Of a DNA stretch of 396 nucleotides, positions 96 through 396 are shown one piece after another; the stretch's first letter is position 1, and each line of letters opens with the position of its first letter. A program made the translations under genes and the position numbers. The notes under the pieces are model-generated. The model searched no databases. It saw nothing but the letters and a program-made list of their open reading frames with translations, and had not been told where the DNA came from. This stretch comes from Escherichia coli (GTDB lineage: Bacteria > Pseudomonadota > Gammaproteobacteria > Enterobacterales > Enterobacteriaceae): the NCBI RefSeq assembly GCF_003334355.1, contig NZ_QOWP01000109.1, one strand, 5' to 3'.

Positions 96-248
96 CTACT
101 TCTTCGGTTCGTAAGCGAGAACAGCCTTAAACTCAATATTACGTTCCTTCACCGTAAACTCACACAGCGAGTCTCCGACCAGAAGCGTAAATCCCAGCAC
201 CGTTAAACACAGCACTATGACTGCCGCAAGGGCATATTTCGTCAGCAT
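96..248 (-). CDS. hokE: Hok/Gef family type I toxin, a small membrane-depolarising peptide, 50 aa: [50 protein letters not shown]
   Basis: Minus-strand ATG at 248..246 and TAG stop at 98..96 (complement of plus cta). The translation has the Hok family hallmarks: a hydrophobic transmembrane N-terminal half, the conserved SLCE motif and a C-terminal ...AYE... tail. It is near-identical to the E. coli HokE sequence as I recall it. GGAGG lies 10 nt upstream. The IS186 end 21 bp downstream matches the known K-12 hokE arrangement. This is the C-terminal 50 codons of the 95-aa track ORF. Confidence 0.9.
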
Positions 249-288
249 GTTTATATTGCCTCCATGCGAAGAAGGGACTACCATCCAA
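160..288 (-). CDS. Putative mok-like (modulator of killing) overlapping reading frame; start codon unresolved. The frame is open from 345 to the TGA at 162..160; TTG at 288..286 is the hok-proximal candidate start.
   Basis: This minus-strand frame puts a CAT codon at 249..247, one nucleotide 5' of the hokE ATG. That is the same register as mok relative to hok in plasmid R1 as I recall it (GGC CAU G). It stays open for 62 codons and terminates inside hokE, as mok does. No ATG or GTG is present in frame and no Shine-Dalgarno precedes either TTG, so whether it is translated here is uncertain. Confidence 0.25.
256..284 (+). promoter_or_regulatory. Candidate sigma70 promoter for the Sok antisense RNA: -35 TTGCCT (256..261), 17-bp spacer, -10 TACCAT (279..284)
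   Basis: Seen directly on the plus strand. The -35 matches TTGACA at 4 of 6 positions and the -10 matches TATAAT at 4 of 6, including positions 1, 2 and 6, with optimal 17-bp spacing. The -35 overlaps the complement of the hokE Shine-Dalgarno (cctcc 259..263), the arrangement expected for a sok promoter. Confidence 0.35.
259..263 (-). promoter_or_regulatory. Shine-Dalgarno sequence (GGAGG) for hokE
   Basis: Minus-strand GGAGG at 263..259, followed by a 10-nt spacer (CAATATAAAC) and the hokE ATG at 248. The spacing is at the long end of the functional range, in keeping with Hok translation being inefficient and regulated. Confidence 0.6.
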
Positions 289-291
289 ATT

Positions 292-350
292 GTTCGGGTT
301 TGGAGTGGCAGCCCCAGGGTGTACTGACCCCAAAAAGTTGGACAGTTAAA
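292..350 (+). ncRNA. sokE: Sok-type antisense RNA (antitoxin of the hok/sok type I system), antisense to the hokE mRNA leader; boundaries approximate.
   Basis: In hok/sok systems a roughly 60-nt antisense RNA is transcribed opposite the hok leader from a promoter overlapping the hok translation initiation region. A sigma70-like promoter on the plus strand (-35 TTGCCT 256..261, 17-bp spacer, -10 TACCAT 279..284) predicts a start near 291..293. This agrees with my recollection of the annotated E. coli K-12 sokE position relative to hokE. No canonical stem plus U-tract terminator is visible at the 3' end, so the 3' boundary is the least certain part. Confidence 0.4.
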
Positions 351-363
351 CACGAGGCATATA

Positions 364-396
364 GGTCTGATTCCGATATTCAATTGGAGTCAGACC
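364..396. repeat. 11-bp imperfect inverted repeat (GGTCTGATTCC / GGAGTCAGACC) with an 11-nt spacer; potential RNA stem-loop on either strand
   Basis: Plus 364..374 ggtctgattcc and 386..396 ggagtcagacc are reverse complements at 10 of 11 positions. The odd position is a G-U wobble in plus-sense RNA and a C-A mismatch in minus-sense RNA. Loop is 375..385 gatattcaatt. Function unknown; it sits at the window edge, so flanking context such as a U-tract or promoter cannot be seen. Confidence 0.5.

Follow-up and report, generated by a model that had tools for sequence, protein, structure and literature searches.

A 95-codon reading frame at an Escherichia coli hokE locus, very probably formed by chance from an IS150 end, the hokE leader and the hokE gene

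The window (the whole 396-nt stretch of DNA that was analysed) can be read with high confidence as the E. coli chromosomal locus of the type I toxin-antitoxin pair hokE/sokE in a decayed state, lying between two insertion sequences. Three unrelated pieces of DNA make it up, namely an IS150 end (396..320), hokE DNA (319..75) and an IS186/IS421 end (74..1). Its sole gene product is very probably the 50-residue HokE translated from the GGAGG-preceded ATG (248..96, minus strand), and a longer reading frame of 95 codons that contains it would, in all likelihood, be a chance fusion of the IS150 end, the leader and the HokE gene and not a gene in its own right. Such a frame would exist only because the hok frame happens to be free of stop codons across 64 nt of IS150 and the 71-nt leader remnant. 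The features of the window are collected in Table 1.

Table 1. Position, strand and basis of the features assigned in the 396-nt window.
Feature	Coordinates	Strand	Basis
95-codon chimeric frame, very probably non-genic (IS150 end + hokE leader + hokE)	96..383	-	
IS150 right end, IS3 family, same orientation as hokE	320..396	-	
CCC, one copy of the 3-bp IS150 target-site duplication	317..319	.	
hokE mRNA leader remnant, last 71 nt of the ~150-nt leader	249..319	-	
Leader stem-loop GGGGCUGCC...GGUAGUCCC	274..315	-	RNAalifold
sokE gene remnant, nt 1-28 of the 60-nt SokE	292..319	+	Mapping of K-12 ncRNA sokE (b4835)
Probable sokE promoter	256..284	+	Sequence and geometry relative to the annotated SokE 5' end at 292
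hokE Shine-Dalgarno GGAGG, 10 nt 5' of the ATG	259..263	-	
hokE CDS, 50 aa, Hok/Gef family membrane toxin	96..248	-	RefSeq WP_000956455.1; Pfam; NCBIfam
UUCUUCG box, just 5' of the Shine-Dalgarno, ucb-like	267..273	-	RNAalifold
CGAAGAA box, 3' end of hokE, dcb-like	100..106	-	RNAalifold
hokE 3' UTR remnant, 21 nt; 5' half of the GC-rich hairpin GCGGGGAG(U/C)AAUCCCCGC	75..95	-	
IS186/IS421 left end (CATAAGCGCTAACTTAAGGGTTG...), transposase ATG at 19..17	1..74	-	

The 95-codon open reading frame (ORF) runs on the minus strand from 383 to 96, with a TTG start at 383..381 and a TAG stop at 98..96, and the sequence 5' of the TTG (ACTCCAA) contains no purine-rich Shine-Dalgarno (SD) sequence. The hokE ATG at 248..246, on the other hand, follows a GGAGG (263..259) at a distance of 10 nt. 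The TTG start lacking an SD, the ATG behind GGAGG and an in-frame ATG at 284..282 (context TTTGG ATG) that likewise lacks an SD had been pointed out in a preliminary description of the window, and the sequence confirmed all of them. The same description let the ORF read through the regulatory leader, which is right for 319..249 (71 nt) but not for its first 64 nt (383..320), which lie inside IS150. In terms of origin, codons 1-21 are IS150 DNA, codons 22-45 are hokE leader and codons 46-95 are HokE, and codons 1-12 overlap the end of the IS150 transposase gene (stop TAA at 348..346) in another frame.

When the 95-residue translation was searched against family models, Pfam HOK_GEF aligned to residues 50-91 only (E = 5.5e-07, model positions 1-42 of 42), the NCBIfam HokA and Hok models matched residues 46-92 and 54-95, respectively, and residues 1-45 had no match to any Pfam or NCBIfam family HMM. 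In an alignment of the translation with database relatives, invariant columns started at M46. It had been anticipated that only the last 50 residues would align to Hok/Gef proteins, and the family models agree with this. Those 50 residues are identical to K-12 HokE and to WP_000956455.1, whose RefSeq hokE CDS (153 nt) coincides exactly with window 248..96, and the HMM match together with a length of 50 aa in all 23 relatives places the protein in the Hok/Gef family (PF01848). The NCBIfam scores of the 95-residue query were under the curated cut-offs (45.7 against 89, 37.1 against 73) and no HokE-specific NCBIfam model matched it; the name HokE is therefore given by identity to RefSeq HokE and not by those models. 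In a search of the protein database with the same query, residues 1-21 were covered by no protein except P0017, in which the identical IS150-derived 21-residue peptide is joined via a differently framed leader to another Hok paralogue, as expected if the N-terminal peptide is simply translated IS150 DNA. Over-extended Hok calls of 83, 98 and 67 aa are numerous in that database.

For comparative analysis, 21 further hokE-type loci were gathered from Escherichia, Citrobacter, Klebsiella, Phytobacter, Pluralibacter and Enterobacter, with IS-free E. coli copies added, and 23 loci were compared. The hok ORF was 153 nt long in 23/23 loci without any indel, and the stretch corresponding to the upstream 71 nt had lengths of 71, 70, 67, 66, 65 or 64 nt, which differ by non-multiples of 3. 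Variable sites at codon positions 1, 2 and 3 numbered 20, 13 and 38 in hok, whereas the upstream 71 nt read in the hok frame gave 11, 10 and 10, indicating no codon periodicity in the upstream stretch across the 23 loci; within Escherichia, the ratio of synonymous to nonsynonymous changes was 170:64 for hok and 16:59 for the upstream stretch. All loci begin with MLTKYA(L/V) behind an invariant GGAGGCAA. The in-frame open stretch 5' of hok, on the other hand, ranged from 13 to 52 codons among the loci, and in Nissle-type E. coli the hok frame meets a TGA 15 codons 5' of the gene. The RefSeq CDS, the HMM matches confined to residues 46-95 and the third-position bias of variation all agree with the earlier proposal that the real gene is that of a 50-aa Hok toxin; conservation of the N-terminal 45 residues as protein, which would have spoken against it, was not found, residues 1-21 being IS150 and the leader residues changing frame between loci. 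Regarding initiation of hokE, the spacing from SD to ATG is 10 nt in Escherichia, which is longer than optimal, and 6-7 nt in the other genera. A 4-codon mini-ORF (ATG GAG GCA ATA TAA; window 251..265, minus strand) includes bases of the hokE SD and stops 2 nt short of the hokE ATG; it occurs only in Escherichia, where a 4-nt insertion stretches the SD-to-ATG spacer to 10 nt.

The boundaries of the hokE DNA are set by the two insertion sequences. Window 396..320 is identical at 77/77 positions to the right end of the annotated K-12 IS150, and includes the final 17 codons of transposase orfB, whose TAA stop is at 348..346, as well as a terminal inverted repeat that ends in ...GGGGTCAGTACA at 320; homology with K-12, which is free of IS150 here, breaks exactly at 319/320. 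A locus with the same arrangement (L001) has the junctions atcaaCCC/TGTACTG on the left and CAGTACA/CCCtgggg on the right, and K-12 and Nissle have a single CCC, the empty IS150 site. Judged from these junctions, CCC is the classical 3-bp target duplication of IS150, and with the terminal identity it assigns the element to IS150 (IS3 family). The insertion is in the Sok-target hairpin of the leader, 71 nt 5' of the hokE ATG. At the other side, IS186/IS421 (IS4 family), identified by its end motif and the located transposase ATG, interrupts a GC-rich hairpin at a distance of 21 nt from the hokE stop, which is the same point as that of IS186B in K-12 and an empty site in Nissle; its target duplication is visible in K-12 and falls outside the window's reach here. 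In the RefSeq annotation of strain 300709, an IS150 transposase CDS ends and an IS421/IS186 transposase CDS starts within the region equivalent to the window. Many E. coli chromosomes, those of the B derivative BLR(DE3) and of E. coli C among them, match the whole window at 99.7% identity with one mismatch at position 88, the single base (T here, G elsewhere) that differs from every other examined E. coli copy. This base sits at the foot of the GC-rich 3' hairpin already split by IS186.

Since hok loci normally carry an overlapping mok frame whose translation is needed for that of hok (PMC1635323), we considered whether part of the long ORF might descend from such a frame. In the K-12 annotation mokC shares the frame of hokC, and mokB is read in a different frame from hokB; the former means that an upstream in-frame extension is not absurd in principle. 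The leader part 319..249 might be the beheaded remnant of a genuine translated mokE, namely the 83-codon frame that starts from an ATG at -99 in IS-free K-12-type loci. We regard this as unlikely, though several observations favour it: Escherichia has an ATG 99-100 nt 5' of hok with a GAGGT SD, which in K-12 and relatives stands 8 nt upstream of the -99 ATG; the ATG is found in all 9 Escherichia loci, and the lineage of the window carries it across IS150. However, a 1-nt indel polymorphism decides whether this ATG is in frame with hok (83 aa; K-12 type, as in the window's lineage) or opens an out-of-frame reading of 62 aa that terminates within hok (Nissle type), so the frame is not conserved even within Escherichia; in two loci (L009 and L011) it stops short of the hok SD region, and in Citrobacter and Klebsiella the position is not a start codon. 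When the annotated mokC and mokB loci were used as rulers, the mok start was located 57-58 nt 5' of hok, behind GAGG and covered by the first 9-11 nt of Sok. Some Klebsiella relatives have GAGG...ATG at this homologous position, whereas in E. coli hokE the GAGG SD is replaced by GGGG and the ATG by CCA, so that the window lacks a canonical mok frame with an SD and a start under the Sok 5' end, and no mokE is annotated in K-12. In the window's lineage the -99 ATG is on the far side of IS150, 1.44 kb off, and the 95-codon ORF therefore cannot be this mokE frame. We rejected an in-frame extension as mokE in the window on these grounds (canonical SD and start absent, -99 ATG beyond IS150, downstream frame unconserved); on the sequence arrangement, the -99/-100 ATG, be it the start of a functional mokE or not, does not rescue the 95-codon ORF.

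Other frames in the same region were also noted. An out-of-frame ORF of 57 aa (333..160) was rejected as a mokE candidate, having a TTG start inside IS150 and no family match; it corresponds to the frame that the -100 ATG opens in Nissle-type loci and is unconserved outside Escherichia. On the plus strand, a 36-aa ORF (window 217..327) runs antisense to the hokE leader and has been cut short by IS150; its full form is annotated by PGAP as an 89-aa 'hypothetical protein' in Nissle (WP_001332745.1; L006 671..940, minus strand) and as a frameshifted pseudogene in DH1. The calling of this antisense ORF, which covers the leader and the sokE region, is probably spurious. Many E. coli have a tandem hokE pair between ybdK and entD, with a median of 2 places per genome (for instance, 909..1061 and 1412..1564 in the locus of strain 00_3305, L008), and the members of a pair carry different states of the 1-nt leader indel on which the frame of the upstream ATG depends.

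A shorter extension, a 62-aa HokE made from the in-frame ATG at 284..282, is highly improbable. The ATG itself is kept in 21/23 loci, and in 14 of these its distance from hok (36 or 33 nt) places it in the hok frame. It is, however, complementary to the final three bases of the sokE -10 hexamer (TACCAT, TAACAT or TACTAT across loci), which explains why ATGGTA or ATGTTA recurs there. In addition, it has no SD, it is replaced by ATA in two loci (L019 and L026), it lies 32 nt from the hok ATG and out of frame in 9/23 loci, with a stop at +7, and the residues between it and the hok start are unconserved. The view expressed in the preliminary description, that an extended Hok is unlikely, thus stands for the 62-aa form for lack of an SD and of conservation, but the argument is weaker than it had been put, given that mok is translated and that mokC is in frame with hokC. 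As for true expression of the 95-residue chimera as a new IS150-hokE fusion gene, the ORF is intact in several hundred E. coli genomes sharing the junction and a parallel 93-aa ORF at a paralogous junction is called a hypothetical protein in one genome (P0017), but the idea can practically be set aside, because the start is a TTG without an SD, codons 1-12 share their DNA with the end of the transposase gene, which is read in a different frame, conservation is limited to identical DNA, PGAP does not call the ORF and the exact 95-aa sequence is absent among the protein database matches. It is by comparative and sequence arguments only that translation from 383 or 284 would be excluded.

The antisense gene opposite the leader is also broken. 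K-12 sokE (b4835; L003 434..493, minus strand) maps to the plus strand of the window from position 292, and IS150 cuts it after nt 28 of 60, the half with the stem-loop and terminator being replaced by IS150; instead of a complete Sok gene, the promoter and nt 1-28 are left. The putative sokE promoter consists of a -35 TTGCCT (256..261), a 17-nt spacer and a -10 TACCAT (279..284), and overlaps the hokE SD on the other strand. A scan of the window for consensus promoters and terminators found no match, which for this promoter is due to its matching the consensus at only 8/12 positions; the assignment is therefore based on the K-12 sokE annotation and on geometry.

The leader remnant 319..249 is identical to K-12 sequence (L003 466..536). 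Against Rfam RF01794 the window scored 24.4 bits, below the gathering score of 59, and this low score is due to the presence of only the 3' part of the leader, whereas the intact Nissle leader matched the model at full length with 82.3 bits (157 positions, from GGGUGCC to the hok AUG). The window match also runs over 396..320, but there an IS150 hairpin is aligned by chance with the first hairpin of the model, and this part was discarded. Although RF01794 bears the name 'sok antitoxin', what it matches is 157 nt of the hok-sense strand and not the ~60-nt antisense SokE (window 240..396, minus strand; L006 761..911, plus strand); it behaves as a model of the hok leader.

Consensus folding of 22 IS-free loci with RNAalifold gave a hairpin, GGGGCUNCC...GGUAGUCCC (window 315..274; columns 97-113/123-138), with compensatory changes at several pairs, suggesting that the hokE leader evolves as RNA. 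A long-range pairing of UUCUUCG with CGAAGAA flanks the ORF (window 273..267 with 106..100; columns 139-145/306-312) and was kept in 20-22 of the 22 loci. The UUCUUCG box resembles the ucb element of hok mRNAs, for whose elements the names tac, fbi, ucb and dcb are in use. A pairing of the 5' and 3' ends, GGGUGC/GCACC(U/C), was kept in 22/22 intact loci, being nearly invariant and thus with weak covariation support, and the full-length Nissle mRNA folds with this end pairing (z = -9.85). In the window, both partners of this tac/fbi pairing are missing because of IS150 and IS186, beyond which they lie. The fold architecture of the intact hokE mRNA is that described for hok mRNAs (PMC2891591, PMC3562002). 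It had been argued earlier that annotating the 95-residue product would hide the leader elements; the leader RNA is indeed structured, but that argument had missed the IS150 start of the frame and the truncation of the leader.

Upstream of intact hokE, a near-consensus LexA box (CTGTATAAATAAACAG) is found just 5' of the -10 (TAAGAT) at K-12 L003 343..358, and the same box is at 10..25 of L001. Escherichia loci conserve this box, and several loci of Citrobacter, Klebsiella and Phytobacter have a recognisable form of it. That hokE carries a LexA box and is SOS-induced has been reported (PMC2826370, PMC1891008). In the window, hokE would be cut off from this LexA-controlled promoter and from the mRNA 5' element, which are ~1.44 kb away beyond IS150, as well as from the 3' fold-back element beyond IS186, and sokE would be reduced to a promoter and 28 nt. 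HokE, if made, would then depend on read-through transcription from IS150. Since promoter, 5' leader and 3' element are lost and sokE is truncated, the locus should be unable to operate as a regulated hok/sok module, and its anatomy thus points to functional inactivation. K-12 hok/sok loci have been described as inactive (PMC1635323), which fits this reading. IS186 downstream of gef/hokC is thought to disrupt fbi; however, gef/hokC with IS186 was reported to be still transcribed and antisense-regulated (PMC3562002).

The closest known relative is K-12 hokE/sokE (b4415/b4835) with IS186B, which encodes an identical HokE and whose DNA, apart from window 88, agrees fully with the window between the point 71 nt 5' of the ATG and the IS186 junction, the latter included, which lies 21 nt past the stop. 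K-12 differs in having no IS150, so that leader, sokE and the LexA-box promoter are contiguous with hokE. In the founding system, R1 hok/sok (parB), there are likewise a Hok/Gef toxin and a structured leader (PMC1635323, PMC2891591), an antisense promoter overlapping the translation-initiation region of the toxin, and mRNA 5'-3' end pairing, the last being shared by the intact hokE relatives. By contrast, two IS elements have broken up the system in the window, the canonical SD and start of mok are missing from E. coli hokE, and intact hokE is driven by a LexA-controlled promoter (PMC2826370). Among 5426 complete E. coli genomes, 4950 have an uninterrupted leader plus hokE. In 1818 there is a place that matches 80% or more of the window, a threshold just reached by K-12-type loci that have IS186 without IS150, and an IS150-hok junction of this type occurs in up to 550 genomes, paralogous junctions included.

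Insertions at comparable positions are seen in other hok loci, which have been described as insertion hotspots (bioRxiv 10.1101/527788). In K-12 hokA, IS150 likewise lies in the leader, where it separates the promoter side from the toxin ORF, interrupts the gene of the antisense RNA and splits the annotated pseudogenes mokA and sokA; it is, however, 32 nt 5' of the hokA ATG compared to 71 nt in the window, and in the opposite orientation. In strain MS14386, a hok paralogue between cysH and cas3 (L031 404..2110) carries IS150, in the same orientation, at the equivalent place in the Sok-target hairpin, IS186/IS421 21 nt after the stop and a parallel chimeric ORF with the identical 21-residue N-terminus (P0017). 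This locus differs from the window in being another hok paralogue and in its target duplication (ACC, against CCC in the window), both of which indicate an independent insertion, and its IS421 transposase gene is on the strand opposite to hok, whereas it is on the same strand in the window. Independent insertions at the same two sites suggest target-site preference or repeated selection. We offer it as a tentative idea only that IS150 and IS186 each target a specific structural position of hok loci, or that selection repeatedly favours these disarming insertions. The sites may be the boundary between loop and 3' arm of the Sok-target hairpin for IS150 and the GC hairpin 21 nt after the stop for IS186, and may then have been hit independently in several paralogues, namely hokE, the cysH-linked hok and, by IS186 only, hokC. 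If true, the surviving putative sokE promoter would direct transcription into IS150 that is antisense to the transposase gene at its 3' end.

The 50-aa hokE gene and the class of IS-inactivated hok loci (IS150 in hokA; IS186 beside hokC and hokE) are already known, and the main value of the present analysis is one of annotation hygiene: six-frame or naive gene calling yields extended 'Hok' proteins, and recognising the IS150-hokE-IS186 anatomy prevents a false 95-aa protein. A toxin copy uncoupled from its SOS promoter, antisense antitoxin and mRNA fold-back also matters when functional toxin-antitoxin systems are counted. As a minor observation, a 2.3-kb contig of Marinobacter sp. B9-2 (L030, coverage 2.87) carries a fragment 95% identical to HokE residues 31-49, which is probably enterobacterial contamination of that assembly.
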